Shown: piece by piece, positions 33,847 to 62,982 of the stretch
Numbering within the stretch: position 1 is the first letter of the stretch
Layout of the letters: each line of letters opens with the position of its first letter
Assembly (NCBI GenBank): GCA_964438735.1
Contig: CAYTLW010000014.1
Coordinates: forward strand, 19,635 to 83,634
Origin: an uncultured Enterobacteriaceae bacterium
Lineage (GTDB): Bacteria; Myxococcota_A; UBA9042
Direction: 5' to 3'
Length of the DNA stretch: 64,000 nucleotides
The notes under the pieces: generated by a model
Seen by the model: only the letters and a program-made list of their open reading frames with translations
Database searches by the model: none
Told to the model about the DNA's origin: nothing
Program-made: the position numbers and the translations under genes

Positions 33847-35949
33847 TCAGCTCAACTGACCGCGCAGGCTGCGAACCAGGCGCTTGAGTTCTGCGTTGCG
33901 ACCGCTGCAGGCGTCCAGGCTCTCCTGCATCAATTCCATGCCCTCGGAACGCTCGTCGGCATCGTCACTGCGAATCTGCTCGAACGCGTCGGACAGCTGC
34001 ATGAAGTCGTTTCGGAAGCTCGACACCGCGCCGTTCAGGTCGCCGACCATCTGCGAAAGCTCGGTCAGGTCTGCGCCGCCGGCATCGCCACCGCTGGCCT
34101 GGGCCGCAGTCAGGGACTCTTCGGCGCGGGCAAGCTGACCCTTCAGGGCATCCAACTCGCCGCGAAGGGCGTCTTCAGCGGCGCCATTGTCGCCTGCCGA
34201 ACCGCGTGCATCTGCGGCATCCTTGCGGGCGTCGTCCAGGTCCTTGAGCAGCTTCTTGATGCGCTTCATGTTGGCGCTTTGTGCGGCCTCCAGGTCCTCG
34301 CGATCGGCGTTGGCGGCCTTGAGGTCCTTGCGCGCCTTTTCGAGCTCGGCGGGGTCGGCGGCCGGGGCATCGCTCGCCTCAGCGACCTGCGCCTGCAGCG
34401 CTGTCACTTGATCGCGCAGCTTGGCCAGCTCCGCCGTATCCGCTTCGTTGGACTGACCGGCGGCGGCCTTGGCGGCCTTCAGTTCGCCTTCCAGTTCGGC
34501 GATTCGCGCCACGCTGGCGGCGTCGGCCTCGGCGGACTCTCCGGCGGCGGCTGCTGCCGACTCGGCGGTCTCGGCACGCTTGTTGGCGGCGGCCAGATCA
34601 CCCTGCACCTGGGCCAACTCAGACTTCAGGGAATCGACCTCGGCTTTGGCCGCCTCCACGGCCGCGGCCTGGGCGTCGTAATCCGCCTGCGAGACCGACG
34701 GGCCCTTGGCAGAGGCCTCAGCAGCGGTGGACTTGAGCTGCGCGACCTGGTCCTCGAGCGCCTTGCGACTGGCCTGGGTGGCTTCGTTCTGCGAGCGAAG
34801 CATGCCGGCCAACTCCTCGGCGTTGCGGCGACCTGCGCGGGCTTCCTCGTACTTCTCCTGGGCATGCTCGAGATCGTGCTTGGCGGTATCGAGTTGCGAT
34901 TGGATTTCGGTCAGCGCCGCCTCGTCGACCTGGCCGCCGGCAGGTGCGGCCGCCAGCTGCTCGCGCAGCGAGTCGAGTTCCGTCGCCGACGCCTGCACCT
35001 GCGCCTCGTTTTCTGTGGCCTTGGCCTGGGCTTCGTCCAGCTGGCCCTTGAGCTCGTCGACCTCCGCCAACGCCTTGTCGGCCTCGTCGCGCGCGCTGTC
35101 GGCGTCCTCACAGGCCTTCTCAAACTCTTCGCGCAACTGGCCGACCTCGCCGGCGGCTACGCGCAGCTGCTCGACCTCTGCCTGCAGGGCGTTGAGCTTC
35201 TCTTCGCCGCCAGCGCCGTCTTCCATGCGCTTGCTTAGCGACTCGAGTTCGATCTCCAGGCCCTGAATCTTCGCGTCTCGCTGCTCGAGATCACCGGCCA
35301 GGCGCTCCACATCGCCGCGTAGACTTTCGATCACTTCGGCGTCCGCTTCGGCCAGCGGCGGATCATCCGGCAGCGGCTCGAAGTCGTCCACGTAGTCGTC
35401 CACCTCGGGCTCGTCGAAGTCGGCCATCGGCGGCGGCGGGATCGGATCGGCGGCCGGCGGAGGTGGGATGTCCGCGCCACCGGGGGGCGGTGGAATGTCG
35501 TCCATAGGGGCCGGCTCTTCCCAGCCGCCCGCATCGGCAAATCGCGTCGCTTCGACGTCTTCGTCGCCGTAGTCGATCACCTCGTCGATGGTGTCCTCAT
35601 AGCCTTCGGGCGCGCCGCCCTGGGCCCGGCGCAGATCTTCTTCGTCCAGATCGAAGCGCATCTCGAAGTTGCCGCACATGAAGAACTCGCCGTCATCGAG
35701 CGAGACCGGATCCTGCGGCGACAGGCGGTTGTTCTGGTAGTACGTGCCGTTGGACGAACCATTGTCCTGCAACCAGTAGCTCTCGCCGTCGAAGAAGACG
35801 CGGGCATGCTGGCGCGAGACGCTCTGGGTAGAGGTCCGGATCCCGCACGATCGATGTCGACCGACCATGACCTCGGGATTGTCCTCACCGACGACCATCT
35901 CAAGAGGTTCACCACTGTCACCGATGTAGCTGATGCGTGCCACAGGCAT
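33847..35949 (-). CDS. FHA-domain protein with long coiled coil
   Basis: VGRHRSC...VSRQHA...LQDNGSSNGTYY FHA motifs, acidic/Pro linker, long heptad-rich region. GGAGG RBS. Confidence 0.9.
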   Translation of the reverse strand: MPVARISYIGDSGEPLEMVVGEDNPEVMVGRHRSCGIRTSTQSVSRQHARVFFDGESYWLQDNGSSNGTYYQNNRLSPQDPVSLDDGEFFMCGNFEMRFDLDEEDLRRAQGGAPEGYEDTIDEVIDYGDEDVEATRFADAGGWEEPAPMDDIPPPPGGADIPPPPAADPIPPPPMADFDEPEVDDYVDDFEPLPDDPPLAEADAEVIESLRGDVERLAGDLEQRDAKIQGLEIELESLSKRMEDGAGGEEKLNALQAEVEQLRVAAGEVGQLREEFEKACEDADSARDEADKALAEVDELKGQLDEAQAKATENEAQVQASATELDSLREQLAAAPAGGQVDEAALTEIQSQLDTAKHDLEHAQEKYEEARAGRRNAEELAGMLRSQNEATQASRKALEDQVAQLKSTAAEASAKGPSVSQADYDAQAAAVEAAKAEVDSLKSELAQVQGDLAAANKRAETAESAAAAAGESAEADAASVARIAELEGELKAAKAAAGQSNEADTAELAKLRDQVTALQAQVAEASDAPAADPAELEKARKDLKAANADREDLEAAQSANMKRIKKLLKDLDDARKDAADARGSAGDNGAAEDALRGELDALKGQLARAEESLTAAQASGGDAGGADLTELSQMVGDLNGAVSSFRNDFMQLSDAFEQIRSDDADERSEGMELMQESLDACSGRNAELKRLVRSLRGQLS

Positions 35950-36155
35950 CCCTCCTGGGCGGCGGCCCTGCCACCGCTGCGGCTCCCTTGACGCTTTCGC
36001 GAGCAGCCGACGACGGCGCATGAACCGGAATTCCGCTCCCGGTCTTGCGTCCGGTGCGCGAAACTAGCAAACGACAGGGCGCCGTTCAATGCCTCGGCAT
36101 GGCCTTGTTTGCAGGTGGTTTTTCGTCCGAGGCCCGGGTTTTTCCTCGCTGGACC

Positions 36156-36183
36156 TTGACAGCATGCCCCCCCAACCTAACTT
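36156..36183 (+). promoter_or_regulatory. candidate dnaK promoter
   Basis: TTGACA-N16-TAACTT, ~135 nt upstream of dnaK. Confidence 0.5.
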
Positions 36184-36318
36184 GCGATTGCGAGGCGGCC
36201 CAGAATAGGCCTGTAATCTCGCATATGTATGGCAAGATCGGGGGCAAATCGCGCCCGCTCGAAGCGCCGCATCCCCAGGCTGGCAGGTCGCCACCGGGCG
36301 ACCCAGCGGGAGACGAAC

Positions 36319-38241
36319 ATGGGAAAGATTATCGGAATCGACCTCGGAACCACCAACTCGGTCGTCGCGGTCATGGAAGGTGGCAAGCCGAAGGTCATCG
36401 CCAACCAGGAAGGCAATCGCACGACACCCTCCGTGGTGGCGTGGAATGACAAGGGAGAGGTCCTTGTCGGGCAGATCGCGCTGCGCCAGGCGGTCGTGAA
36501 TCCGGAGAACACGGTGTTCTCGGCCAAGCGCCTCATCGGTCGCAAGTTCGTCGAGATCGCCGACGATCGCAGCCACCTGCCCTACGAGGTCAAGGCTGCC
36601 GACAATGGCGACGCGCACGTGGAAGTGAGCGGCCGCCTGATGTCGCCGCCCGAGGTCTCCTCGAAGGTGCTGGCCAAACTCAAGGAGGCCGCAGAGGCCT
36701 ACCTGGGTGAGACGGTCACCGAGGCCGTGATCACGGTGCCGGCCTACTTCAATGACTCGCAGCGAAGCGCCACCAAGGACTCCGGACGGATCGCCGGCCT
36801 GGACGTCAAGCGCATCGTCAACGAGCCCACCGCAGCGGCGCTGGCCTACGGGCTGGAGCAGGTTGAGGAGAAGACCATCGCGGTCTTCGATCTCGGCGGC
36901 GGCACGTTCGACATCTCGATCCTCGAGGTCTCGGATAACGTGGTCGAGGTCAAAGCGACCAACGGCGACACCCGCCTGGGCGGCGACGACATCGACGTGG
37001 CCTTGATCCAATTCCTGGTGCGCGAGTTCAAGAAGGACCAGGGAATCGATCTGGGCAACGACAAGATGGCCATGCAGCGCCTGAAGGAGGCCGCCGAGAA
37101 GGCCAAGCGCGAGCTGTCGACGACCACGGAGACCGAGGTCAACCTGGCCTTCATCACCATGGACGCCAGCGGCCCCAAGCACCTGCAGCAGCGAATCTCC
37201 CGGGCCACCCTGGAGCAGCTCTGCGAGGATATCTTCACGCGCATCCACGAGCCCTGCCGCAAGGCATTGGCCGACGCCGGGCGCAATACCAAGCAGATCG
37301 ACGAGGTCCTGTTGGTGGGCGGCTCGACCCGCATCCCGCGCGTGCGCGACATCGTCAAGGAGATCTTCGGCAAGGAGCCCAACCAGTCGGTCAACCCCGA
37401 CGAGGTGGTGGCCCTGGGCGCCGCTGTTCAGGCGGGTGTGCTCGCGGGCGACGTCAAGGACATGCTCCTGCTCGACGTCACGCCCCTGTCGCTGGGTGTG
37501 GAGACCATGGGCGGCATCATGACCGTGCTGGTCAAGCGCAATACGACCATCCCCCACCGCAAGGCCGAGATCTTCTCGACCGCCGAAGATGGCCAGCATG
37601 CGGTCACGATCAAGGTCCTCCAGGGCGAGCGTGAGATGGCCCGCGCCAACAAGTTGCTGGGTCAGTTCAACCTCGAGGGCATCCCGCCGGCGCCGCGCGG
37701 CGTGCCACAGGTCGAGGTCACCTTCGACATCGACGCCAACGGCATCCTGCACGTGTCGGCCAAGGATAAGGCCACGGGCAAGGAGCAGAAGATCACCGTG
37801 CAGGGCGGCAGCGGCCTGAGCGAAGAAGAGGTCCAGGACCTGGTCAAGGAAGCCGAGAAGCACGCCGACGAGGACAAGGCGGCAAAGGAGCGCGCCGAGA
37901 CGCGCAACCAGGCCGACGCCACCGTCTACCAGATGGAGAAGATGCTCACGGAGCATGGCGACAAGCTGCCCGAGGGCGACAAGGGCACGGTGGAAGCCGC
38001 GCTCGAGAAGGCCCGCGAAGCCCTCAAGGGCGATGACGTCGAGGCCATCAAGGCCAGCCAGGAAGAGCTGAAGCAGGCGGCCTACAAGCTGTCCGAGGTC
38101 ATGTACGCCCAGCAGGGCGGCGAGCCCGAGGGTGGCGCGCCCGGCCCCGACGGCCCGACCCCGCCGCCAGCAGGCGACGCCAAGGTCGATGATTCCAAGG
38201 GCGGCGACGACGTCGTCGACGCCGAGTTCGAGGTGAACTAG
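36319..38241 (+). CDS. dnaK: molecular chaperone DnaK
   Basis: [38 protein letters not shown]-terminal DAEFEVN. Confidence 0.99.
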
Positions 38242-38410
38242 ATGTCCGAGGCGCAAGTGGTGAGCCGGTCAGGGCGGCGAGGTGCAAGCCAGGTGGCTAG
38301 GGCAGACCGAAGGAATAGCCGAGCTATTTCGAGAGGCTGCCGGAGCCGCATGGCGCAGTCAGATCGTCGTCTTGGACGGATTGCCATCTCAGCCGAGGAC
38401 ATCTAGCTTC

Positions 38411-39343
<933 letters not shown>

Positions 39344-39454
39344 CTCTCCCGTTGTCCCAGCGCGTGCACGCTGCCGACCGCGCTTGACAGGGGCGGTCCG
39401 GGGCAGGACATTGCGTGCGCCCAAATCGCGCCGTGCGCGCTTTTCCGGAGCATC

Positions 39455-40288
39455 ATGATGAACAAGATCGCCGTCGCTCTCGCCAGTTTCGTCGCCATCG
39501 CCATGCTGGCGACCGCGGCCCTGGCCGCCGACCCGGTCAAGAAGATCAAGCTCAGCGATCCCGCGGGTGACGACAAGGGGCCGGGAACCTACATCTACCC
39601 GTCCAACTCGGTCTACACCGCCGGCAGCTTCGACCTGCGCGGCCTGCAGGTCATCGACAAGGGCTCCACGATCGAGTTCCGCGTCGAGGTGGGCACCCGG
39701 GTCAAGGATCCCTGGAACTCCAAGGAGTGGGATGGCAACGGCTTCTCGCTCCAATTCGTACAGATCTACATCGACACCGATCACAAGGCGGGCTCGGGCT
39801 TCACCAGCACCCTGCCTGGGCTGGGCAAGCTCAGCCTGGCCGCCGACCAGGCCTGGGATAAGGTCGTACTGATCTCACCGCAGGGTAAGCAGCGCCTCAA
39901 GTCCGAGGTGCGCTACAAGGCCGGCAAGATGGCCAAGGCAGCCGTGATCCCGAAGACGACGCGGGCCCGGGGCAAGAAGTTGATCGCCGTGGTCAAGAAG
40001 TCCGACCTCGGCCAGCCCACCAAGGCCTGGGGACTGCAGGCTGTGATGCAATCCAACGAAGGCTTCCCCAAGGGCAAGGACATCCTCACGCGGCCGGTCA
40101 ACGAGGTTCGCGGCGAGCATCGCTTCGGCGGCGGACACGACACGAGTTGCGATCCGCAGGTGATCGACATCTTCGCCGGCAAGGCTGCCGGCTCGGCCTC
40201 AGAGGTCGCCGCTCAGAAGAGCGCGCTGGCCTGGAAGTGCGGCAGCAAGGTGGCCACCCTGCCGATGATCTACCCGTTCGCTCGCTGA
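39455..40288 (+). CDS. exported glucodextranase-C / DOMON-like domain protein
   Basis: Signal peptide, SDPAGDDKGPGTYIYP...FDL...DPWN...GFSLQ.VQIYID. Confidence 0.85.
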   Translation: MMNKIAVALASFVAIAMLATAALAADPVKKIKLSDPAGDDKGPGTYIYPSNSVYTAGSFDLRGLQVIDKGSTIEFRVEVGTRVKDPWNSKEWDGNGFSLQFVQIYIDTDHKAGSGFTSTLPGLGKLSLAADQAWDKVVLISPQGKQRLKSEVRYKAGKMAKAAVIPKTTRARGKKLIAVVKKSDLGQPTKAWGLQAVMQSNEGFPKGKDILTRPVNEVRGEHRFGGGHDTSCDPQVIDIFAGKAAGSASEVAAQKSALAWKCGSKVATLPMIYPFAR

Positions 40289-40307
40289 CGCGACACCGAG
40301 GGCACCC

Positions 40308-42260
40308 ATGGCTCGACCCCGGCAAGGCCTGGTTGCGATCGCACTGTCTGCAGGCCTGTTGATGGCCAGCGGACAGGCGCACGCCGACCTGAGCAAGTTC
40401 GACATCTCGGCCCGCATCTATACCAAGCACCTGTACACCAATGACGACACGCAGGGCTTGCTGTGGTTGGGCAATCCGTTCTGGAATGACCAGATCGCCG
40501 GCGGCAACGGCGTCGGCAGCGAGTTCGAGCTGACCTTCAAAGGTCGGGTCAGCGATTTTGTCGCCGCGGGCGCCCGCCTGTCGTCCCGTTTCGGCGAGCG
40601 CTGGCAGGACTACTGGGAGAGCGGCAACCGGATGTATGGCGACGTGGAGAACACCTCGGGTGACTCCGCTGGCATGAATCGCGCCGCGTACATGAAGTTG
40701 CGCGGCACATGGATTCAACTGCAGCCCAAGATCCCCTACGTCGACTGGGTGCGCGTGGGCTCCTCCGATCTCGCCATGTTCAACCCATGGACCATCGGCA
40801 AGCTGCGCTACATCGATCGCGACAACGGCAAGGGCTACTTCATGCGCGGCTGGCTCGGTGCCGACCGGCAGGCCACCTGGCTGCTGGCCGCCGTGGCCCT
40901 GCCCAAGCTCTGGGTGGGCCCCTGGTGGTCCACGGGATTGGGCGATCCGGCACTGGAGAACCCATTCTGGGCGCGAGATTGGGCTTACGCCGCCACCTTC
41001 CGCTGGCAGGCCGCCGAGGGCTCGGTGATACGCCTGGTCGGCGACATCACGCAGGATCTGGAGGTGGATCCGGCCGACCCCGACGCGGTGGGGTCCGCCA
41101 ACCCCAACTGCACGGACAAGCTGGGGCATGCAATCCCCGGTTGCCAGGCGGATCATGCCGTCGACTTCTACAACCGTTACAACTCGGTCAACGCCACCGC
41201 GCAGCTGGACCAGGAGTTGGGTGAAGCCGGCAGACTGGACGCCCTTGTTGGCTACAGCAGGCAGCGGATCGACGCCAGCCGCACGGCCAACGGCGTGGCC
41301 CTGAATCAGGGCATCTCGCCCATCGCCTACCAGGATAGCGATGCCTTCGCCGCCCGCTTACGCCTGCTTTCAGATGACCCATTCGAGACCGGCGTCTCGT
41401 TCAAGGCCGAGTACTTCAACATCGGCCAGGACTGGAACGCCATCTTCGGCGCCCGCCGCGAAGCCGACGTCCTGCTGACCGACGGAGTGCTCGGCGGCGG
41501 GCAGCTGCCCACGCTCAACCTGGCCAACGAGTTCATCGACTTCGGCGAGGGCTGGGTCGAGTCCTGCGTGGGCTGGCATGGGGGCACCGCGATCGTCGAA
41601 TACAACAACGATGACGGCGACCTGAAGCTGCTCGCAGAGTTCACGATGCTGTTCTACAACACCGACGCGCAGGACCGCGATACGGACACGATCTACCCGG
41701 ACTTCCTGCACAGCGATGGCTACACGGACATCGGGCTGTATGACTACGCCAACACCAGCGATCGCGGCCGCGACCCGCGATCGGTCTACCACGACAACCA
41801 GTGGCGCCGGACTCGGATCAGCGTACTGCGGGGCGTCAAGACGTTCGACGTCGGCCGCGATCTGGAGCTGCACTTCAAGGCCAAGTACGTGTTTGATGAG
41901 GACTTTCGGTGCACGGACACGACTCGATGCGGCGAGGGTGCGCTGGGCGATGACTACACCGGTCACATCTTGATCGGTCGCGTGAAACTGGCCATGCCCG
42001 TCAGTGATGGATTGAAAATTGCAGTAGGTGGACGGGTGGACCGCTGGTACGAAGACAATCGGCGCGGCACCTTGGAGTTGGGGTACGGCGACGACGAAAC
42101 CAGGCGACATGCCGGCTTCCTCGAAGCGGGCTACCAATTCGGTGGATTGCGGGCAGCCTGGCATGTGGAGTACGTTCACAAGGACCAACAGCGCGAGCGC
42201 GAGAGCGACCAGCTGTGGGCGGTGTGGCGATCGAAGGCCACGGTAGAGGTTGCCTGGTAG
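40308..42260 (+). CDS. probable outer-membrane beta-barrel protein, unknown family
   Basis: Signal peptide (AHA-D), aromatic/Asp-rich amphipathic strands, C-terminal KATVEVAW beta-signal. Confidence 0.7.
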   Translation: MARPRQGLVAIALSAGLLMASGQAHADLSKFDISARIYTKHLYTNDDTQGLLWLGNPFWNDQIAGGNGVGSEFELTFKGRVSDFVAAGARLSSRFGERWQDYWESGNRMYGDVENTSGDSAGMNRAAYMKLRGTWIQLQPKIPYVDWVRVGSSDLAMFNPWTIGKLRYIDRDNGKGYFMRGWLGADRQATWLLAAVALPKLWVGPWWSTGLGDPALENPFWARDWAYAATFRWQAAEGSVIRLVGDITQDLEVDPADPDAVGSANPNCTDKLGHAIPGCQADHAVDFYNRYNSVNATAQLDQELGEAGRLDALVGYSRQRIDASRTANGVALNQGISPIAYQDSDAFAARLRLLSDDPFETGVSFKAEYFNIGQDWNAIFGARREADVLLTDGVLGGGQLPTLNLANEFIDFGEGWVESCVGWHGGTAIVEYNNDDGDLKLLAEFTMLFYNTDAQDRDTDTIYPDFLHSDGYTDIGLYDYANTSDRGRDPRSVYHDNQWRRTRISVLRGVKTFDVGRDLELHFKAKYVFDEDFRCTDTTRCGEGALGDDYTGHILIGRVKLAMPVSDGLKIAVGGRVDRWYEDNRRGTLELGYGDDETRRHAGFLEAGYQFGGLRAAWHVEYVHKDQQRERESDQLWAVWRSKATVEVAW

Positions 42261-42275
42261 GCAAGGGGGCACTGG

Positions 42276-43358
42276 ATGAGCAAGTTCTCGGAGTCAATCG
42301 ACAAAGCCAAGAACAAAGTCAAAAAGGCCACCGATGACGCGGCCAAAGACCTGAAGAAGGCACGCGAAGACGGCGAAAAGAAGATCGACGAGGCGAAGAA
42401 GACCGCCGACAAGAAGATCGACGACAGCGGTCTGCCGGATCCGGTCAAAAAGGCTGCCAAAGACGCGACCAAGGCCGGCCACAAGGCCGCCAAGAAGGCC
42501 GTCGACGAGGGCAAGAAGAAGGCCAAGGAAGCTGTCGAAGAGGCTGAGAAGAAGGCCCACGAGGCGATCAAGGAAGCCGAGAAGAAGGCTGACGAGGCCA
42601 TCGCCGAGGCCGAGAAGTTCGCCAAGAACGAGGTCAAGAAGGCCAGCGATAAGCTCAAGGACATCATCGACGACTCCAACCTGCCCGGGCCCTTGAAGGA
42701 CCTGGCCAAGAAGGGTGTCGACGAGCTCAAGAAGCTGGCCGACAAGGGCATCGACGACCTCAAGAAGGAAGCGTCGGGCATGGTCGACGACCTCAAGAAG
42801 GACGCCGACGAGATGGCCTCACACCTCAAGGACAAGGCCCTGGAGGTGCTCGGCTTCGAGAAGGAGAAGCCGGCCGTCAAGCCGCCCAAGCCGCCAGCGG
42901 TCAAGCCGCCAGCGACCACCAATACGTCGCGAAAGTTCGATCACCAGGGCGTATTCCGCTTCAAGGTACAGCTTGGCAGCATCCAGGCCGGCGCGTTCAC
43001 CGCGGTGGACGGCCTGACCGCCGAGATCGAGCCCATCGAGTACCAGGGCGGCATGGACATGTACTCGCGCCAGATCCCCGGTCGGCCGAAGGTCTCGCCG
43101 GTGGTGCTCAAGAAGGGTTGGATCAACACCGCCCTGCTCTGGGACTGGATGCGCAAGACCATGGAGGGCGAGCTGAAGTTCGAGAACATCAGCCTGACCC
43201 TGGTGGCCGACGACAATCAGACCGAGCTGGTGCAGTACGACTGCCTGGACGCCTGGCCGTCACGCTGGAATGGCTTCCAGCTCGACGCCTCGAGCAGCAA
43301 CGCCATGCTCGAAGAGCTGGAGCTGCAGGTCCGCGAGGTCAAGCGCATCAAGGGCTGA
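42276..43358 (+). CDS. fusion: N-terminal 11-mer K/A/D/E helical repeats + C-terminal T4 gp19-like / eCIS tail-tube domain
   Basis: C-terminal FRFKVQL...F..VDGL..EIEPIEY.GG......IPG.PK...VVLKKGW.....LWDW......AWPSRWNG..LDA......EELEL matches the gp19/Afp1-type tube pattern. Confidence 0.88.
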   Translation: MSKFSESIDKAKNKVKKATDDAAKDLKKAREDGEKKIDEAKKTADKKIDDSGLPDPVKKAAKDATKAGHKAAKKAVDEGKKKAKEAVEEAEKKAHEAIKEAEKKADEAIAEAEKFAKNEVKKASDKLKDIIDDSNLPGPLKDLAKKGVDELKKLADKGIDDLKKEASGMVDDLKKDADEMASHLKDKALEVLGFEKEKPAVKPPKPPAVKPPATTNTSRKFDHQGVFRFKVQLGSIQAGAFTAVDGLTAEIEPIEYQGGMDMYSRQIPGRPKVSPVVLKKGWINTALLWDWMRKTMEGELKFENISLTLVADDNQTELVQYDCLDAWPSRWNGFQLDASSSNAMLEELELQVREVKRIKG

Positions 43359-43384
43359 GCGCCAGCACATCGACGACGACGCGC

Positions 43385-43425
43385 GACGCCGACAGGGGTT
43401 CAGACTCCTGGCGGCGTTGCCTTTT
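43385..43425. terminator. terminator hairpin after the tube gene
   Basis: gacgccgacagggg/ctcctggcggcgtt stem followed by gcctttt, between convergent genes. Confidence 0.6.
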
Positions 43426-45025
43426 GGGGCAGAGGCGCGACCGGCTCATCCAGTTCGCGGCCCATTTCGGCGGCGTGGAAGCGCACGTCGTGCACGATGA
43501 CGCCATCGACGATGACCAACGTGGGCACGGGCGCTTTGCCGCCGGCCTCCCAGGCTCGATTCCAGAGCACGATGTCGGCGGGTGCGCCGACCGCGAGCCG
43601 GCGCGCATGGCCTCGATGGTCGGCGCTCATGCGCGCCATCGCGCGGGCCGGAGAGATCACGCTCGTCAGCGAGGTGAAGAATCGCCACGGACGGCTTGAA
43701 CCGGCGGGCAGGGCCGAGCCGACGACCACGGTGCACTCCCGGGCCAGGCCGACGGTCAGCCACGACGCGCGGTCCGAGGGTGGTTGGATCGACGCGATCG
43801 CGCGCTGCCGACATAGCGGCAACACGGTCGCCACATCAGACGGTCGCTCGATGCGCAGCGGTGGCGCGCCTGGCGAGCGGCGGGCGGCTCGCAGGACTCG
43901 GGAGACCCGCTTGGCGGCGTCATCGCCCTCCAGGTGCACGGCCAGCTGCAGACCGGCATCGTCCGCCTGGCGAAGTCGCTCCGCCAGCGCACGATCCAGC
44001 GCGGCGGCATCGGCCGACGCCCCGCCAGGTTCCAGCCAGAGTTCCAATCCCGCCAGGGTCACCAGCCGGGATCGCCAGGCCCCGGGTGCCAGACCTCCCG
44101 CTTCGCGTTTGGGTGCGCGCTCGCGCTTGCGCGTGGCCAGCGCGCGGCCGGTCGACGGGTGCAGGGCGTCGAGGTAGATCACGCAGCGCACATCGAGTCG
44201 CCGATCTCGCTCGAGGTCGACGAGGATGCGCCAGATGTCGGCCGTCGCGCCCATGATGTGGATGGTGGTGATGCCGCGATCGCGCAGTCCGCTGAGGGTC
44301 TGAACCAGCAGCGGCTTGAGGCGTCCGCTACGAGGCGCAGGCAGCGCCCGCCACACGCTGCGCAGCAGGCCACCGGCGAGTCTGCCACGGTGCTTTCGCG
44401 CCGGACCCTGGAGCCTCGGCGGAAGGGCGGAGAGCAGGCTACGACTCAACAACGCCTTGCGACCATCGGCCGTGCTCAGGAGGATCGGCAATCCGGGTGC
44501 CAGTCGGGCCAGGTCGTCTGCGCTCAAGCCGTCGAGCAATGACCCACGCAGCCCCCAGCCCCAGGCCCAGTCGTCGCCACGAAGCTGTTCGCTGCGAACC
44601 TTCAGGCGTTGGCGCAAGGCGGCCTGATCGGTGACCTGTCGCATGTCGATGGCGTCTCGTCGCAGGGCCGCCGCGTCCAGACGGACGTGACCGTCCACGA
44701 GCCCGGCGCCAGCATGCGCGTTGCGTCCATCGATCAGGCGGGTGGTGGGGCCGCGGATTTCGCGTAACTCGGGCAGGCTGCCAACGCCGGCGATTGCACC
44801 GTTGCGCATGGCGACGGCCTGCCTGCGCCCATCGATTTGCACACCGTCGACGATCAACGAGGCGTAGCGGGCGATGGCGCGGCGCGTGGCGGCGGCTTCG
44901 TTGGTCTCTGGAGGGATCAGGAAGTCGCGGATGGACTGGCATCCAACCGTCAGCGTCAGCGCAGCCGTGATGGTGAGGGCGACCAGCAGGTTGCGGCCTG
45001 GTCGGGTCGGGCCGGCGATGGGCAT
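43400..45025 (-). CDS. YtcJ-like amidohydrolase-3 family lipoprotein, apparently catalytically degenerate
   Basis: LTVG-C lipobox, AMRNGAIAGVGS...TRLID..GLVDGH, GITTIH, QLAVH, RLAVGAPADIVLW. Confidence 0.75.
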   Translation of the reverse strand: MPIAGPTRPGRNLLVALTITAALTLTVGCQSIRDFLIPPETNEAAATRRAIARYASLIVDGVQIDGRRQAVAMRNGAIAGVGSLPELREIRGPTTRLIDGRNAHAGAGLVDGHVRLDAAALRRDAIDMRQVTDQAALRQRLKVRSEQLRGDDWAWGWGLRGSLLDGLSADDLARLAPGLPILLSTADGRKALLSRSLLSALPPRLQGPARKHRGRLAGGLLRSVWRALPAPRSGRLKPLLVQTLSGLRDRGITTIHIMGATADIWRILVDLERDRRLDVRCVIYLDALHPSTGRALATRKRERAPKREAGGLAPGAWRSRLVTLAGLELWLEPGGASADAAALDRALAERLRQADDAGLQLAVHLEGDDAAKRVSRVLRAARRSPGAPPLRIERPSDVATVLPLCRQRAIASIQPPSDRASWLTVGLARECTVVVGSALPAGSSRPWRFFTSLTSVISPARAMARMSADHRGHARRLAVGAPADIVLWNRAWEAGGKAPVPTLVIVDGVIVHDVRFHAAEMGRELDEPVAPLPQKATPPGV

Positions 45026-54922: not shown

Positions 54923-55090
54923 CGCCTCAAACCCCAACCCAGGCCCCTCGATGCGTGCCGGCATGACCGGTGGCGCCACAATCTTCCATTGAATCGTGAG
55001 CCGGCAGCGTCTATCGTGCGGCGGCCTCGCGCAGGGGCGACGCGCGGGGGGGAGCGCGCGCGTCGCGCGCAACGAGGGCGAGGAGGGGCG

Positions 55091-57214
55091 ATGTCGAGGC
55101 CCGGATTGTTGAGAATGACCGGCATCTTTGGCGACATTCGAGGCCAACTGATGGTCGCGTGTCTGGCTGCCATGGTCGCCGGCTGCAGCGGCACCTCCGG
55201 CACGGCGCCAGCTCAGTTGCAGCCATGCTCGGTCCCCGGTGATTGCCCGGCCGGCCTGACGTGCACCGACGGCGCCTGCGTGGCGGAGTCGAATAACGGC
55301 GGCGGCGGAGCCAAGTTCGGTGAAGATGGCGGCGCCACCACCGGCGGCCTGACAGACGGATCGGGGACGGCGGAGAGCTGCAATGCCGACGCCGACTGCA
55401 ACGACAACCTCGCCTGCACCAAAGACACCTGCGTCGCCGGCAACTGCCAGCACGATGGCGCTGATACCTGCTGCAAGGTGCCTGCCGACTGCGTCTACAA
55501 GGGCGCCGATCCCCAGTGCCGGGACGCGGCTTGCGTGACCGGACTCTGCGTCTTCGCGGTCAAGAATATCGAGGGCTGCGGCTGCTTCTCGCCGACCGAT
55601 TGCGACGATGGAAACTCCTGCTCCGTCGACGGCTGCCTGCTCAACGAGTGCAGCTACGACGTCTACCAGAACCCGACCAACCCGGCCGACAACAGCGACC
55701 CCTCCGATCCGACCAGCAAGTGCTGCGCGGCCGATGTCGATTGCGATGACGGCGACGAGGGCACCTGGGAGAGCTGCGTATCGTTCCGCTGCGTGGTGGA
55801 GAAGCTGATCTTGTGCTCGGCCGACAAAGATTGCGACGACGGCGATGCCTGCACCAACGGTTCATGCCACGACGGCAAATGCGTCTTCGCGCCCAAACCG
55901 GGCTGCTGCAAGGACACCGCCGACTGTTACGACGGCAGCGCGTGCAGCATCGACACCTGCAAAGATGGCGCCTGTGCCTGGTTCCCCAGCACCGCCGAGG
56001 GCTGCTGCAAGGCCGACGTGGACTGCGACGATGGCGTGCCCTGCACCAAGGACGGCTGCAACGCCAAGTACAACTGCGAGAACGCTCCGCAAGCCGGCTG
56101 CTGCATCAGCGCTGGCGAGTGCGACGACGGCAACACCTGCACGCTGGATTATTGCGACAAGGGCGAGTGCAAGCACAGCAAGCCGCCCGAGGGCTGCTGC
56201 AAGACCGATGGCGATTGCGTCTCCAGCGATCCCTGCGCCAAGGGCACCTGCAGCAACGGCGACTGCAGCTTCAGCAAGATCGCCAACTGCTGCGTCAGCG
56301 CGGCCGACTGCGACGACGGCGTGGGCTGCACCGTGGACAGCTGCATCGCCGGCCAGTGCAAGCACGAGTCCGGTGGCCAGAAGTGCTGCAGCGTCAACCT
56401 GGAGTGCGACGACAGCAACTCCTGTACTGACGACATGTGCAACGGCGGCGTATGCGTCAATACGCCCAAGCCGGGTTGCCAGACCAACAAGTGCGGCGAT
56501 GGCAAGTGCGACGCCAACGAGTCGGCGCTGACCTGCCCGCAAGATTGCGGCTCGTCGGGCAACGACTCCTGCCTGGGCAAGTGCGATAAGTTCGACCCCC
56601 TGGCCAAGTGCTCCTGTTCGCAGTACTGCACGCTGCTGAACAACTGCTGCCCCGACTACAAGCAGGTCTGTGGCGGCGGAGGCGGCACACCCAACAAGAC
56701 GTGCAAGGGCAAGTGTGGTGGCCAGGGCACCGGCGGCTGCTGGTGTGACAGCACGTGCAGCCAGAGCGGCGATTGCTGCCCCGACTTCAAACAGGAGTGC
56801 GGTGGCGGCGGCACGCCGACCAAGACCTGCCAGGGCAAGTGCGGCGGCGAGGGCACCGGCGGCTGCTGGTGCGACGCCAAGTGCTCCAGCTACGGCAACT
56901 GCTGCCCCGACTATCAGCAGGTCTGTGGCGGCGGCACCGGCGGCGCGGATTCATGTGCCGGAAAGTGTGGCAAATACGACGGATCGGCCAAGTGCCAATG
57001 CGACACGGGCTGCAAGAACTACAAGGATTGCTGCGCCGATTATGACAAGCAGTGCGGCGGCGGCGGCGGCGGCAACAACCAGTGCGGCGCCAATCCCGCC
57101 TCCACCTGCAAGGGCAAATGCGGCAAGTTCTCCGCCGGGGCCTCGTGCCAGTGCGACTCCAGTTGTCAGCAATTCAAAGACTGTTGCCCTGACATCGGCC
57201 CCTGCTGCCCCTGA
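55091..57214 (+). CDS. Cys-rich lipoprotein: ~11 CDDGNxCTxDxC repeats + five somatomedin-B-like domains
   Basis: AGGAGG RBS, MVAG-C lipobox, repeats read directly from the translation. Confidence 0.88.
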   Translation: MSRPGLLRMTGIFGDIRGQLMVACLAAMVAGCSGTSGTAPAQLQPCSVPGDCPAGLTCTDGACVAESNNGGGGAKFGEDGGATTGGLTDGSGTAESCNADADCNDNLACTKDTCVAGNCQHDGADTCCKVPADCVYKGADPQCRDAACVTGLCVFAVKNIEGCGCFSPTDCDDGNSCSVDGCLLNECSYDVYQNPTNPADNSDPSDPTSKCCAADVDCDDGDEGTWESCVSFRCVVEKLILCSADKDCDDGDACTNGSCHDGKCVFAPKPGCCKDTADCYDGSACSIDTCKDGACAWFPSTAEGCCKADVDCDDGVPCTKDGCNAKYNCENAPQAGCCISAGECDDGNTCTLDYCDKGECKHSKPPEGCCKTDGDCVSSDPCAKGTCSNGDCSFSKIANCCVSAADCDDGVGCTVDSCIAGQCKHESGGQKCCSVNLECDDSNSCTDDMCNGGVCVNTPKPGCQTNKCGDGKCDANESALTCPQDCGSSGNDSCLGKCDKFDPLAKCSCSQYCTLLNNCCPDYKQVCGGGGGTPNKTCKGKCGGQGTGGCWCDSTCSQSGDCCPDFKQECGGGGTPTKTCQGKCGGEGTGGCWCDAKCSSYGNCCPDYQQVCGGGTGGADSCAGKCGKYDGSAKCQCDTGCKNYKDCCADYDKQCGGGGGGNNQCGANPASTCKGKCGKFSAGASCQCDSSCQQFKDCCPDIGPCCP

Positions 57215-57222
57215 TAGCTTCG

Positions 57223-58776
57223 ATGCAAGAGCACTTGAGGACGGCGCTGCTGATCGCGCTCGTGGGCGGGGCTCTGTGCTGCCGCGAGCCGCCGCCCGAT
57301 GAAAAGCCGGGCGCCTTTTGCGTCGATCGAAGCGACTGCTCCGACGGCCAGACCTGTCGCAACAGCGCCTGCGGGCCGTGCACGAACTCCAATGAGTGCG
57401 ACGGCTATCTCTGCCTGGACGGCCAGTGCCAGCAAGGCGTCGGCTGCAGCTGCGCGCCGGGTGCGCGCTGCACCAACGCCAGCGCCTACTGCAAGGACGC
57501 CGGCGGCTACGACGTGGCGGAAGAAGTGTGTACCGACCGCTACGACTGCGATGACGGCAACCCGTGCACAGCGGATGAGTGCGGCAGCAGCGGCAAATGC
57601 ACCCACGGCACGGAGACCAATCCGCCGCCCGGTGCCCCGCAATGTTGCGCCAAGGTGAGCGATTGCGACGATGGCCACCCCTGCACCGAGGACGGCTGCC
57701 TCGACCACCAATGCAAAAACCTGCCCGAGCCGGGCTGCTGCGTGGCCCACATGGAGTGCCTGGACGACGATCCCTGCACCACGGACTCCTGCGTCGATAA
57801 CAGCTGCAAACACAGCCACCACGGCCTGCCCTGCTGCAAGGAAGCGCTGGACTGCATCGATGACGATCCGTGCACCTTGGAGGCCTGCGCTGGCGGCGCC
57901 TGCGTCGCGCCGCGCAAGCCCGACGCCAAAGTATGCCCGTGTTGGAACCTGGATGACTGCGACGATGGCAATCCCTGCACACTCGATACCTGCGTGGCGG
58001 GCAAGTGCCTGTACACCGTCGATCCGCAGGCGCTCAACACCAACCCATCCTGCTGCGATGAGCACCTGGACTGCGCCGATGGCAGCGCGTTGACCTCCGA
58101 TCGATGTGTGCTCAATCGATGCAGCCGCAGCGTAGCCAAGGTCTGCAAAGCCAAAGCGGAGTGCGACGACGACAACACCTGCACCAAGGACGCGTGCGTG
58201 GGCGGTGTCTGCGCCAACTCGCTCATCGTCGGCTGTTGCACAGACAACCTGCAATGCAGCGATGGCAACCTGTGTACCGATGATAAATGCAAGGGTGGCA
58301 AATGCAGTCACAGCGCCAAGCTGGCCAAGGGCTGCTGCACTTCGTCCACCCAGTGCAATGACGGGGTCAAGTGCACCAAGGATTCCTGTGCCTCGTTCAA
58401 CTGCGTGCACAAACCCACCGCAGCCGACTGCTGCGGTAGCGACAAACATTGCGATGACGGGGAGTGGTGCACGGACGACTACTGTGAAGGCGGCAAGTGC
58501 AAGCACTACAAGGCCGCCAAGAGCTGCTGCATCAAGAACTCTGAATGCAACGACGGCAACGCCTGCACCATCGACGTCTGCCTGGCCGGTCAGTGTTCCG
58601 CGAGCTGGATCAGCGATTGTTGCACCTCCGCTGCCATGTGCGACGACGGCAACAAGTGCACCAAGGATGCGTGCAGCCCGGCCAAGGCGTGCGTCAACAC
58701 CGTGATCGCCGGCTGCTGTTTTCACAATGGCAACTGCAAGCCGCCCAAGAAGTGCAAGAAGGGCAAGTGCGGCTAG
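57223..58776 (+). CDS. exported Cys-rich protein with ~12 CDDGNxCTxDxC repeats
   Basis: Signal/lipobox-like N-terminus, ~31-aa Cys repeats, 8 nt after the previous gene. Confidence 0.88.
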   Translation: MQEHLRTALLIALVGGALCCREPPPDEKPGAFCVDRSDCSDGQTCRNSACGPCTNSNECDGYLCLDGQCQQGVGCSCAPGARCTNASAYCKDAGGYDVAEEVCTDRYDCDDGNPCTADECGSSGKCTHGTETNPPPGAPQCCAKVSDCDDGHPCTEDGCLDHQCKNLPEPGCCVAHMECLDDDPCTTDSCVDNSCKHSHHGLPCCKEALDCIDDDPCTLEACAGGACVAPRKPDAKVCPCWNLDDCDDGNPCTLDTCVAGKCLYTVDPQALNTNPSCCDEHLDCADGSALTSDRCVLNRCSRSVAKVCKAKAECDDDNTCTKDACVGGVCANSLIVGCCTDNLQCSDGNLCTDDKCKGGKCSHSAKLAKGCCTSSTQCNDGVKCTKDSCASFNCVHKPTAADCCGSDKHCDDGEWCTDDYCEGGKCKHYKAAKSCCIKNSECNDGNACTIDVCLAGQCSASWISDCCTSAAMCDDGNKCTKDACSPAKACVNTVIAGCCFHNGNCKPPKKCKKGKCG

Positions 58777-61045: not shown

Positions 61046-61642
61046 ATGACCGGAACTCGGTGCCCGGCGGCGCATAACAGTCACAAGCTGGCAGGTCCGG
61101 CCTGGCTCGGTTTGATCCTGAGCGCCTGCTTGTGGGTCGGCTGCGGCCCCAAACAGGGCAATGAGGTCCCCGGGGGCGGCGCCGTGCAGAGCCAGCCCGT
61201 GACCGCGCAGCCAGCAGACTCGCCGAAGACCGCTGCGGTGGACAAGGCCCAGGGATTCGCCCTGCTGGTGGTGGAGGATCGGGCGGGCCAACTGGCCGTC
61301 GCTTCGGGTCACTTGGGCCAGCTGGCACGCCTCGGGGTCAAGGAGCGACGCGGCGTGCTGGCCGCCTGGCAGCAGCCGGCTCCCGCCACGCGAAGGGCCG
61401 GCGAGTACTGCGGCCGCCTGCTCGACTCCGCGCGCCGGCAGGCCGCCCTGCGCTGCGTACGACCGCGCAATACCGCCCACCTGGCGCCGCGGACCGCAGG
61501 CGCTCCGCCCACCGACAAACCGCTGAACACGGTGGCGTTCTCCTTGCGACTGCCATGGCCGGCCACGGCCACCGGCAGCGGCTGGACGCTGGAGATCGGA
61601 GCGCCCGACGGCCGCACCGCCACCTGGCGACCACGGGAGTAG
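61046..61642 (+). CDS. lipoprotein, unknown function
   Basis: LWVG-C lipobox. Sits between fmt and the M64 gene with 2-4 nt gaps. Confidence 0.65.
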   Translation: MTGTRCPAAHNSHKLAGPAWLGLILSACLWVGCGPKQGNEVPGGGAVQSQPVTAQPADSPKTAAVDKAQGFALLVVEDRAGQLAVASGHLGQLARLGVKERRGVLAAWQQPAPATRRAGEYCGRLLDSARRQAALRCVRPRNTAHLAPRTAGAPPTDKPLNTVAFSLRLPWPATATGSGWTLEIGAPDGRTATWRPRE

Positions 61643-61644
61643 GG

Positions 61645-62982
61645 ATGTCCGTGCCCGCCGCTCGTTTCCGGTTCGTCGTCCTGGCGGTCTTCATCGTCAC
61701 GTCGAGTTGGACCGATGCGACCGCGGCGCCATTCGACATTCCGGTGCACGACGACCTGACGACCCTGCAGGCGGCCGCGGCGCTGGCCGATGCCTACGAC
61801 ATCGTCTTTGTGGGGGACGGCTATACCGAAGCCCAGCGCAATGAATTCCTCGCCGACGCCAAGGCCGTCTCGACCGGTCTGCTGGAGTTCGGCCCTTATG
61901 CCGACAGCCGCTGGCTGATCAACAGCCACGCGCTCTTCGCTGCTTCCAAAGAGAGCGGCGCCGACCACCCCGGTCAGGAGATCGACGTCGACACCGCGTT
62001 CGACGCCACCTACGAATCCTTCGGCATCGCCTACCTGATCACCGCGAGCACGGCCAAGATCCTGACCGCGGTGGGGTCGATCATGCCCGCCTACGACCAG
62101 GTGATCTTGATCGTCAACGATGACGACTACGGCGGGTCGGGCGGCGAGGTCTCCATCGTATCGACGGCTCCGGCGTCGCTGGCCATCTTGCGCCACGAGG
62201 TCGCCCACAGCATCGGCGGGCTGGCAGACGAATACGAACATCCCAATCCCAACGCCAAGTTCGAGGATCCCGAACCCAACGTGGCCAGCGTGGACCACCT
62301 GACGCCGTTGAAGTGGGGCCACTGGCTCGAGCCCGGCACCCCGATCCCGACCCCCCTGGCCGACGCGACGGGCGACTATGCCCCGGTCGGGGCCTACGAG
62401 GGGGCGCGCTACCTGAGCAAGGACATGTTCCGGCCTTCGCCCGAGTGCATCATGCGCAGCCTGGACAAGTTGTTCTGCTCAGTCTGCGGCGAGGTGATGA
62501 TCCTGCGCCTGGCGAGCGAATCGACCATGCTGCGCGAGCGCTCGCCGACCCAGACGGACGTGGATTGCACTCTGGATCAATGCCCCGCCTTCACCGTCCA
62601 GGTGGCCCCGCTCGCCGATCTGCGGGTGCGCTGGCTGCGCGACGCCGAGATGGTCGGCGAGGGCCTGTCCTGGCAGCCCGGCGTGGCGGCGTTGGGAGAT
62701 GGCCAGCTCATCGCCGAGATCCGACACGAATCGCCCCGCGTACGACTGGACGCCAAGGGGGTGCTGATCGAAGAGGTGACCTGGCAGCTGAACGTCCGAC
62801 CGAACGCCGTCGGAAGCGTCGATGCCGGCGGCAACGACGTGAGCGTGCCGGGCGATCCAACCTTACCTATGGGCTGCACGGGCACGATCACGGGGCCTGG
62901 GACTCCGGCGGCGGGCTGGGGCCTGCTGGCGTTGGCCCTGGCGCTGCTCTGGCGGCGGCGACGATGGCGGCAGATCCGATGA
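61645..62982 (+). CDS. M64 (IgA-peptidase-family) metallopeptidase with MYXO-CTERM-type anchor
   Basis: DIVFVGDGYT, HEVAHSIGGLADEY, GAYEGA...FRP...CIMR...FC.VC, C-terminal GC...WGLLALALALLWRRRR. Confidence 0.9.
   Translation: MSVPAARFRFVVLAVFIVTSSWTDATAAPFDIPVHDDLTTLQAAAALADAYDIVFVGDGYTEAQRNEFLADAKAVSTGLLEFGPYADSRWLINSHALFAASKESGADHPGQEIDVDTAFDATYESFGIAYLITASTAKILTAVGSIMPAYDQVILIVNDDDYGGSGGEVSIVSTAPASLAILRHEVAHSIGGLADEYEHPNPNAKFEDPEPNVASVDHLTPLKWGHWLEPGTPIPTPLADATGDYAPVGAYEGARYLSKDMFRPSPECIMRSLDKLFCSVCGEVMILRLASESTMLRERSPTQTDVDCTLDQCPAFTVQVAPLADLRVRWLRDAEMVGEGLSWQPGVAALGDGQLIAEIRHESPRVRLDAKGVLIEEVTWQLNVRPNAVGSVDAGGNDVSVPGDPTLPMGCTGTITGPGTPAAGWGLLALALALLWRRRRWRQIR

Follow-up and report, generated by a model that had tools for sequence, protein, structure and literature searches.

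The 64-kb stretch of DNA analysed here (the window) carries, at 42276-43358 on the plus strand, a gene whose 360-residue product joins a long N-terminal region of 11-residue (hendecad) helical repeats to a C-terminal tube domain of the contractile injection system (CIS) type. The product genuinely belongs to the CIS tube fold family (T4 gp19 / Afp1 / Pvc1), its tube domain is the working core and its helical region a replaceable tail, and the gene is an orphan among the ORFs scanned and probably domesticated. The reading favoured here, which is held at about even confidence, is that of a stand-alone, vertically inherited tube-family gene with an autonomous, domesticated role, namely a ring or polymer scaffold displaying variable tails. 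It is preferred because the gene behaves as a core gene, has paralogues at housekeeping loci and orphan outgroups, and carries no toxin-like module.

The initial annotation of this DNA had read a gp19- or extracellular CIS (eCIS)-type tube at the C-terminus, and profile, sequence and structure comparisons bear this out. Pfam PF06841 (Phage_T4_gp19) matches residues 227-355 (E = 6.6e-26; 91.2 bits against a cut-off of 28.2), TIGR02241 scores 76.4 bits (cut-off 62.4), and the sequence matches in the PDB are the tubes of Pvc1, Afp1, AlgoCIS, Anabaena and Streptomyces (best E ~5e-9). An AlphaFold2 monomer model was built from 29 family sequences (mean predicted local distance difference test score, pLDDT, of 81), and a Foldseek search with its C-terminal domain retrieved the Pvc1, Afp1, Alg1, tCIS and Streptomyces tubes (probability 1.00, TM-score TMt 0.60-0.66, E 3e-8 to 5e-6). 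T4 gp19 and the Hcp proteins rank below these eCIS tubes (TMt of 0.44-0.58 for Hcp), and viral tail tubes match the model at TMt up to 0.69. The domain carries the motifs SRxFDHQG (a conserved N-terminal arm), IEYQGG, RQIPGRPK, LKKG, WPSRW and EELELQxR; in the alignment, equivalents of IEY..G, PG....LKKG, WP and EE.EL are common to the window protein and Pvc1. Since the motifs shared with Pvc1 and the conserved N-arm are kept, ring formation is probable. The equivalogue models for the CIS components score low: CIS5_fam (inner tube adaptor; NF053769 / NF053770 pair) reaches 64.3 bits where its cut-off is 260, and CIS1_fam (inner tube; cut-off 220 bits) gives no match for the window protein and only 30 bits for its paralogue P0028.

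An exhaustive HMMER search of 1.84 billion representative proteins, with the tube domain as query, returned 2488 family members, of which only 13 lie at E <= 1e-30 and all others at an identity of 41% or less, so that the clade has a sharp boundary. Across 185,579 species (GTDB), each represented by one genome, a scan gave 38 loci in 34 assemblies, all of them uncultured Myxococcota-type metagenome-assembled genomes (MAGs), many from lakes. Some of the records (L025, L030, L031, L034, L036, L040) are titled 'uncultured Enterobacteriaceae bacterium' or 'Klebsiella pneumoniae', yet they show high-GC Myxococcota-type synteny and are evidently mislabelled. No clade member was found on the viral contigs scanned, and deposited phage tubes are at most 26% identical to the window tube protein; a recent phage origin was rejected on these grounds.

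Marker-protein mapping and calling of open reading frames (ORFs) sort the loci into three contexts. In context A, to which the window belongs, divergent PilZ and FHA/coiled-coil genes precede dnaK, dnaJ, usually the Glucodextran_C and 650-aa genes, and then the tube gene, which is followed by a convergent amidohydrolase and a Ser/Thr kinase-PEGA gene. Context B consists of a divergent Trypsin_2 protease, the tube gene and convergent clpX-clpP-tig, and context C of the tube gene followed by ecsC and then lexA. Across the three contexts, 35 alignment columns of the tube domain are invariant, and an A copy and a B copy can share one MAG (L036 and L040 in CAYURO, L033 and L041 in JBMOIG, L035 and L043 in CAJBNH). 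No CIS or phage genes were found within ±10 kb of ~60 related loci, as judged from precomputed gene tables for some loci and, for the 38 GTDB loci, from the same housekeeping markers or spot-checks. The nearest ~150-aa outgroup relatives checked (P0064 and P0054; 37-38% identity) are likewise lone genes amid metabolic genes. The initial annotation had noted that homologues with the same extension inside ordinary eCIS operons would make this a known variant; the opposite was found.

The paralogues have features of their own. The context B form (P0027, P0028 and P0037; L012 10001-10768, L014 10001-10774, L040, L041 and L043), always at the Trypsin_2 / clpX-clpP-tig position, has an N-terminal LysM-like segment, no signal peptide and a 60-residue Pro/Lys (TonB-like) linker. 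The baseplate hub proteins Afp7 and Pvc7 have a similar domain content in the reverse order. The context C form, of 284-341 aa with an A/K-rich helical extension, occurs at L038 (9923-12793), L044, L045, L048, L049, L051, L052 and L057, and the EcsC protein beside it weakly matches the PADLOC candidate system PDC-S29 (E = 4.3e-9). Two distant relatives, P0051 (335 aa) and P0053 (409 aa), carry two tandem gp19 tube domains per chain; the N-terminus of P0051 resembles a signal peptide (MRYRQWLVAVGAATLVVSLALGSALA), in which case this double-tube protein would be secreted.

The division of the protein into a core and a tail follows from the orthologues at the context A locus, in which the region 5' of the SRxFDHQG arm takes very different forms. 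It may comprise only 6-10 residues (in proteins of 150-177 aa whose frame is closed by stops immediately upstream), an S/G/A tract of 42 residues, ~215 residues of K/A/D/E hendecad helices as in the window, ~235 residues of G/K/H/D tandem repeats, or ~190-227 residues of "TKDNTG...TTAGK / LELPEY" repeats; the context B proteins have a LysM that only just passes its cut-off (21.7-23.5 bits; cut-off 20.9) with a long Pro/Lys linker, and the context C proteins other A/K-rich helices. A Pfam scan of these extension types found nothing besides gp19, except the marginal LysM, and most extended forms close with a hydrophobic L(L/F)GG or LGF motif ahead of the linker. The 177-aa orthologues (L053-L059, P0042, P0048), with almost no N-terminal extension, have a C-terminal tail of ~25 residues (...SGYDATHLRRAAAASPPESGGKRG) past the tube domain. 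Identity across lineages is 56-74% for the tube domain, 51-67% for DnaJ, 72-84% for DnaK, 28-37% for the amidohydrolase and 40-49% for the Kelch protein. The ratio of non-synonymous to synonymous substitution rates (dN/dS), taken from close orthologue pairs in which synonymous change is unsaturated, is 0.00-0.03 for the tube domain, 0.18-0.28 for the extension and 0.2-0.57 for the linker; in these pairs, the tube domain and the extension are both under purifying selection. Since the extension is replaced or absent in same-locus orthologues while the tube domain is nearly unchanged, the conserved function cannot reside in the helices.

An obstructive, rapidly changing tail would make a plausible dominant-negative device, and the protein might accordingly be seen as an anti-phage decoy or tail-assembly poison, a host tube subunit whose bulky tail blocks tail completion once it has co-assembled into myophage tubes, with the N-terminal variation reflecting an arms race. 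This is very improbable. PADLOC-DB 2.0 gives no match for the tube protein, five of its neighbours or two paralogues; the position is a conserved housekeeping one and no defence island; the tube domain is under extreme purifying selection; its identity to deposited phage tubes is too low for co-assembly by mimicry; and some orthologues have no tail at all.

The extension itself is regular in build. The AlphaFold2 model contains three helices (pLDDT mostly 85-96), and both breaks between them coincide with the duplicated DDSxLPxP motifs, followed by a linker of which residues 200-225 are predicted to be disordered (pLDDT < 50). The internal duplication that the initial annotation had pointed out is present as IDDSGLPDP / IDDSNLPGP and is nearly invariant in the family, and the KPPKPP of the linker is encoded by a 9-bp DNA repeat at 42878-42895. 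The 11-residue periodicity, also noticed at that stage, is strong (lag-11 identity 0.378, z = 10.6 against shuffles; lag-22 z = 5.0), and 33-bp tandem DNA repeats underlie it at 42489-42617 (3.9 copies, in helix 2) and 42702-42767 (2 copies, in helix 3). Apolar residues occupy positions 2, 6, 9 and 10 of one 11-residue register in all three helices, giving the hendecad a/d/e/h pattern with a narrow, mostly alanine apolar face and a mean hydrophobicity below 0; charged residues make up 51% of the N-terminal 196 positions, whose composition includes K 25%, A 16%, D 14% and E 11%.

Such helices suggest a second alternative, in which the 11-mer region is the functional part, akin to group 3 late embryogenesis abundant (LEA-3) proteins, apolipoproteins, perilipins or phasins, and binds lipid, membranes or granules, while the tube domain only multimerises it. 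The real periodicity with its amphipathic register, the moderate purifying selection on the extension within the sub-lineage and a weak similarity to the Apolipoprotein, Phasin and ATP-synt_B profiles and to apolipoprotein A-I chains in the PDB (E ~0.15) speak for it. However, LEA_4 (PF02987) gives no match to the window protein at E <= 1 despite the 11-mer periodicity, Apolipoprotein (PF01442; E = 4.4e-5) scores 23.7 bits where the cut-off is 90, Phasin 13 where it is 28.8, and ATP-synt_B (E = 5e-4) also lies under its curated cut-off. The narrow, alanine-rich apolar face and high charge described above, together with the non-helical G/K/H or T/G/A repeats, or no extension, of same-locus orthologues, render this alternative improbable. 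The likeness to hendecad families is, as judged from sequence, compositional and periodic rather than homologous, and the region, a replaceable tail specific to the lineage, is no conserved lipid-binding domain; it could form straight helical bundles or a hydrophilic spacer. Of the initially proposed domesticated tube displaying lipid-binding helices, the domesticated part thus stands (a Myxococcota-only clade, housekeeping loci, dN/dS of 0.00-0.03, orphan outgroups) and the lipid module does not.

Other profile matches to the N-terminal region were weighed as well. KfrA_N (PF11740) scores above its cut-off (31.3 bits against 26.1), but only profile positions 45-111 of 113, its helical tail, are aligned; with the winged-helix DNA-binding part unmatched, membership was rejected as a coiled-coil or compositional match, as were the ATP-synt_B, DivIVA and Scy matches, and the tape-measure matches are probably of this kind too. 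Among the latter, phrog_1533 aligns with residues 59-215 at E = 3e-6, the remaining tape-measure PHROGs lying at E >= 0.016; these are low-complexity helical matches, and the genomic position of the tube gene differs from that of a tape-measure gene. A search with the N-terminal 198 residues alone returned no matches, its own family included, as the index was saturated by low-complexity K/A/E-rich proteins, and is thus uninformative on the occurrence of the extension elsewhere.

The fusion is genuine. As initially described, the frame is open throughout its 360 codons, and no in-frame ATG, GTG or TTG occurs at residues 192-228, so that a separate tube-domain product starting from the linker is impossible. 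The unusual architecture, taken by itself, might suggest that the assembly is at fault, that two genes were joined by a frameshift or that a prophage is in decay. Such an origin has a negligible likelihood: the identical 360-aa protein is present on 12 contigs (JGI, ENA and Logan assemblies), the same fused frame is retained in at least 22 homologues of 356-364 aa down to 57% identity, no start codon lies at the junction, both parts are under purifying selection and synteny is conserved. The 12 contigs show that the window gene is no mis-assembly and, with the homologues, refute the mis-assembly or frameshift at the junction that the initial annotation had named as a possible flaw. An antisense ORF of 248 aa (42176-42922, minus strand; G+C at third codon positions, GC3, 0.87) overlaps the repeat-coding part of the tube gene. 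Most likely it is no gene and arises only from the high GC and the repeats of the sense frame, in which conservation and purifying selection reside.

Under the favoured reading, a CIS tube-family gene would have become a fixed chromosomal gene in an uncultured, mostly planktonic Myxococcota lineage. By homology, its tube domain has most likely kept the ability to form hexameric rings like those of Hcp, which may stack to a polymer, and the three-helix tail would project from the ring on its flexible Pro/Lys linker. The inner diameter of an eCIS tube is 40 angstroms. Six extensions of 23.9 kDa each are estimated to fill ~173,000 cubic angstroms, compared with ~49,000 per ring of lumen (~3.5x). 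The rise of a tube ring is 39.2 angstroms, and in a solved CIS (SalCIS) the last tube ring touches the cap through its N-terminus, which changes conformation (PMC13266070); this would place the tube N-terminus at the stacking face. Between tube and sheath, too, there would be no room for six tails. As the tails exceed the lumen and would lack space outside the tube, the estimate argues against it as the main building block of a sheathed tube. The protein would act either alone, as a ring or polymer scaffold with outward tails, or within a CIS from another locus, as a minority or terminal subunit. The same bulk weighs on the initial suggestion of a cargo-bearing subunit like extended Hcp, for which no positive support was found: the extension is N-terminal, has no enzyme or toxin domain and is, by the volume estimate, too large for a sheathed tube built of this protein only.

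Rather unlikely is a role in trans, like that of the orphan hcp genes of T6SS, as an accessory subunit for a CIS whose genes lie elsewhere in the genome; one or a few rings of the protein would join the tube of another subunit (for example, at the cap-facing end) with the tail in the lumen or serving as cargo, plug or length-related element. It would account for the retained family motifs and N-arm, given the cap contact of the SalCIS N-terminus (PMC13266070), and for the variable hydrophilic or disordered N-termini, which recall eCIS cargo-loading sequences (bioRxiv 10.64898/2026.05.27.728243). Furthermore, the presence in one genome of several paralogues that differ at the N-terminus is reminiscent of the polymorphic carriers Hcp, VgrG and PAAR, and the weak tape-measure PHROG matches (phrog_1533) point the same way, although they fall on low-complexity coiled-coil regions. 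Against it stand the absence of CIS genes in all of the ~60 neighbourhoods, the core-gene behaviour with strong synteny and very low dN/dS, the scores far under the CIS1 and CIS5 cut-offs (no match and 64 against 260, respectively), and extensions that carry no toxin or enzyme domain and are missing from some orthologues. The surveys by Chen in 2019 and Geller in 2021 reportedly describe eCIS loci as patchy and often horizontally transferred, unlike these core-like genes.

Several points weigh against an autonomous role. Ring or tube formation is a prediction from homology. The genome may hold a CIS outside the 64 kb and ±10-kb neighbourhoods covered; eCIS clusters are present in related uncultured marine Myxococcota MAGs (UBA796), where gp19 genes are expressed very highly (PMC11937823), which also counts for a trans-acting subunit. 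The extension gives no readable function, the search with it alone having been uninformative as described. Long-range gene order is conserved (ABC_transp_aux, DUF4340, PilZ, DnaK and DnaJ are common to the window and L019), so that the dnaK-dnaJ adjacency is maybe historical and not functional. A functional link to dnaK-dnaJ was down-weighted for this reason and because FHA, PilZ, Glucodextran_C, a 655-aa protein and the tube gene occur together at P0049 (43% identical) without dnaK-dnaJ, while in some other lineages the tube gene lies directly 3' of dnaJ without the Glucodextran_C and 650-aa genes.

With these points in view, a more specific form of the autonomous role is put forward only tentatively: the clade may have been exapted to a sheath-independent structure, in which rings or a tubular polymer assemble by themselves and bear fast-evolving N-terminal tails on the surface (hendecads, intrinsically disordered repeats, LysM), possibly working with the Glucodextran_C and 650-aa proteins or with DnaK/DnaJ and ClpXP proteostasis genes. 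If true, this would be the first case of a phage-tail tube turned, through domestication, into a cytoskeletal or envelope element of its own and not into part of an injection device.

The surroundings of the gene (Table 1) are those of an ordinary chromosome, with thiG, glycosyltransferases, wzy, pepA, rlmN, argG, prs, tonB, ABC transporters, dnaK, dnaJ, def, fmt and proC along the 64 kb. In agreement with the initial description of an orphan, no sheath, baseplate, spike, CIS ATPase, type VI secretion system (T6SS) or phage genes were found among the called genes of the central 20 kb and ~30 long ORFs outside it, a scan from which a small gene (for example, gp25-like) could escape since ORFs under ~200 aa outside the central 20 kb were unscanned; none were found near the relatives examined either. 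The tube gene is the last of a co-oriented string (dnaK, dnaJ, Glucodextran_C, the 650-aa gene, the tube gene), after which the amidohydrolase gene is convergent. It begins 15 nt past the stop codon (42258-42260) of the 650-aa gene, and on this spacing the two are likely co-transcribed. A scan of 35900-43700 for sigma-70 promoters and intrinsic terminators gave nothing over shuffle expectation, so that the operon structure is read from spacing alone. The window contains no CIRCE operator at up to 3 mismatches and hence no HrcA-type link to dnaK.

Table 1. Features of the tube gene, its product and the co-oriented genes upstream (window coordinates; residues are those of the 360-aa protein)
Feature	Position	Strand	Description
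dnaK	36319-38241	+	True DnaK equivalogue (987 bits); heads the co-oriented string
Short dnaJ	38411-39343	+	Second gene of the string (dnaK-dnaJ, 36319..39343)
Glucodextran_C (SLH-like binding module) protein	39455..40288	+	277 aa; signal peptide read by eye
650-aa protein	40308..42260	+	Signal peptide and alternating-hydrophobic C-terminus ...TVEVAW, read by eye
Shine-Dalgarno-like AAGGGGG	42263..42269	+	6 nt 5' of the tube-gene ATG
Tube-fusion ORF	42276..43358	+	360 aa, 39.8 kDa, pI 8.45; N-terminal helical extension, linker and tube domain
Predicted helix 1	42279..42425	+	Residues 2-50; AlphaFold2; 11-residue register
Turn motif 1, DDSGLPDP	42420..42443	+	Residues 49-56; separates helices 1 and 2; S51, L53 and P54 nearly invariant
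Predicted helix 2	42438..42671	+	Residues 55-132; clearest hendecads, EAEKKAxEAIx
Turn motif 2, DDSNLPGP	42669..42692	+	Residues 132-139; L136 and P137 invariant
Predicted helix 3	42687..42848	+	Residues 138-191; hendecads xDxLKKxAxxxI/V
L-G-F motif	42849..42857	+	Residues 192-194; caps helix 3; invariant in the window subfamily
Pro/Lys-rich linker	42858..42935	+	Residues 195-220; AlphaFold2, dN/dS
gp19 / eCIS-type tube domain	42936..43355	+	Residues 221-360; Pfam, TIGR02241, PDB matches, Foldseek

Two of the neighbours accompany the tube gene widely. The Glucodextran_C gene is linked to it in most context A loci, and the 650-aa protein, conserved at 55-72% across the lineage, is almost always encoded 3' of the secreted Glucodextran_C protein. 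The 650-aa protein has no Pfam, NCBIfam, PADLOC or PDB sequence match, and from its signal peptide and C-terminus it probably forms a large barrel in the outer membrane and represents a family not yet described. Both genes belong to a lineage-wide syntenic block of ~20 kb (window 33221-53400; loci L008, L010, L016, L020 and L022-L039), which runs from PilZ and an FHA and SMC-like coiled-coil protein (700 aa) through DnaK, the short DnaJ, the Glucodextran_C protein, the 650-aa protein and the tube gene to the amidohydrolase, two proteins of unknown type, a PEGA-bearing Ser/Thr kinase, a Kelch beta-propeller and, at the end, a PEGA protein. The block may represent a single supercluster for envelope or signalling functions, or mere conservation of gene order. 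Elsewhere in the window, two genes for large proteins (54923-57211 and 57193-58773, both on the plus strand) encode domains typical of eukaryotes, namely four Somatomedin_B (E = 6.5e-25) and the Dictyostelium CTDC repeat (E = 1.2e-12), and a Peptidase_M64 gene (61165-62979) adjoins them.

CIS and phage tubes are known as parts of sheath-driven injection machines and are encoded in operons with their partners, a pattern from which this clade departs. Several paralogues per genome, chaperone-like conservation, housekeeping loci, the lack of CIS genes near the relatives examined and interchangeable tails point to one of two things: distributed CIS components of a class so far unrecognised in Myxococcota, or a reuse of the tube fold for another cellular purpose. 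Literature searches on orphan or stand-alone tube proteins, TIGR02241 and UBA796 found no earlier account of gp19-family clades that stand alone and vary at the N-terminus. One study reports that expression in two uncultured UBA796 Myxococcota MAGs is highest for a PF06841 gene, which it attributes to eCIS and describes as 'often' linked to a sheath gene (PMC11937823; ISME Commun 2025). Some of these expression signals might come from orphan tube genes like that of the window, which therefore merit consideration when such PF06841 signals are read. The window protein is also small and soluble-looking.

Among known systems, the closest are the eCIS inner tubes Afp1, Pvc1, Alg1 and Cis1 (PF06841, TIGR02241), with which the window protein shares family, fold, motifs and a domain of ~140 aa. 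It differs from them in its length of 360 aa with a 220-residue N-terminal extension, in its membership of a separate clade (at most 41% identical to other family members and under the CIS1 and CIS5 cut-offs), and in a gene that is not encoded with sheath, baseplate, spike or ATPase genes (among the ORFs scanned) and sits at a core chromosomal position under very strong constraint. The orphan and extended Hcp proteins of T6SS (hcp islands, Hcp-ET) are alike by analogy, as tube-fold subunits away from the machine with appended domains and several paralogues. Nevertheless, the sequence family differs, no Hcp family match was obtained and the structural match is weaker (TMt as given above). Hcp-ET extensions are C-terminal toxin domains with adjoining immunity genes, whereas the window extension is N-terminal, low-complexity or helical, and devoid of an enzymatic domain or immunity-like neighbour, with no T6SS genes among the ORFs scanned in the window. 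Hendecad proteins such as ATP synthase subunit b (dimerisation domain), apolipoprotein A-I and LEA group 3 share the 11-residue period, the apolar a/d/e/h positions and the alanine-rich face with the extension; they are set apart by profile matches under curated cut-offs, the lack of a LEA_4 match and the fact that the window region is unconserved among orthologues. Lastly, polymer-formers with variable tails (bactofilins, the variable region of flagellin) have no homology to the window protein, whose polymerisation is putative, and an unrelated fold; the analogy lies in the pairing of a conserved assembly domain with fast-evolving, low-complexity ends.

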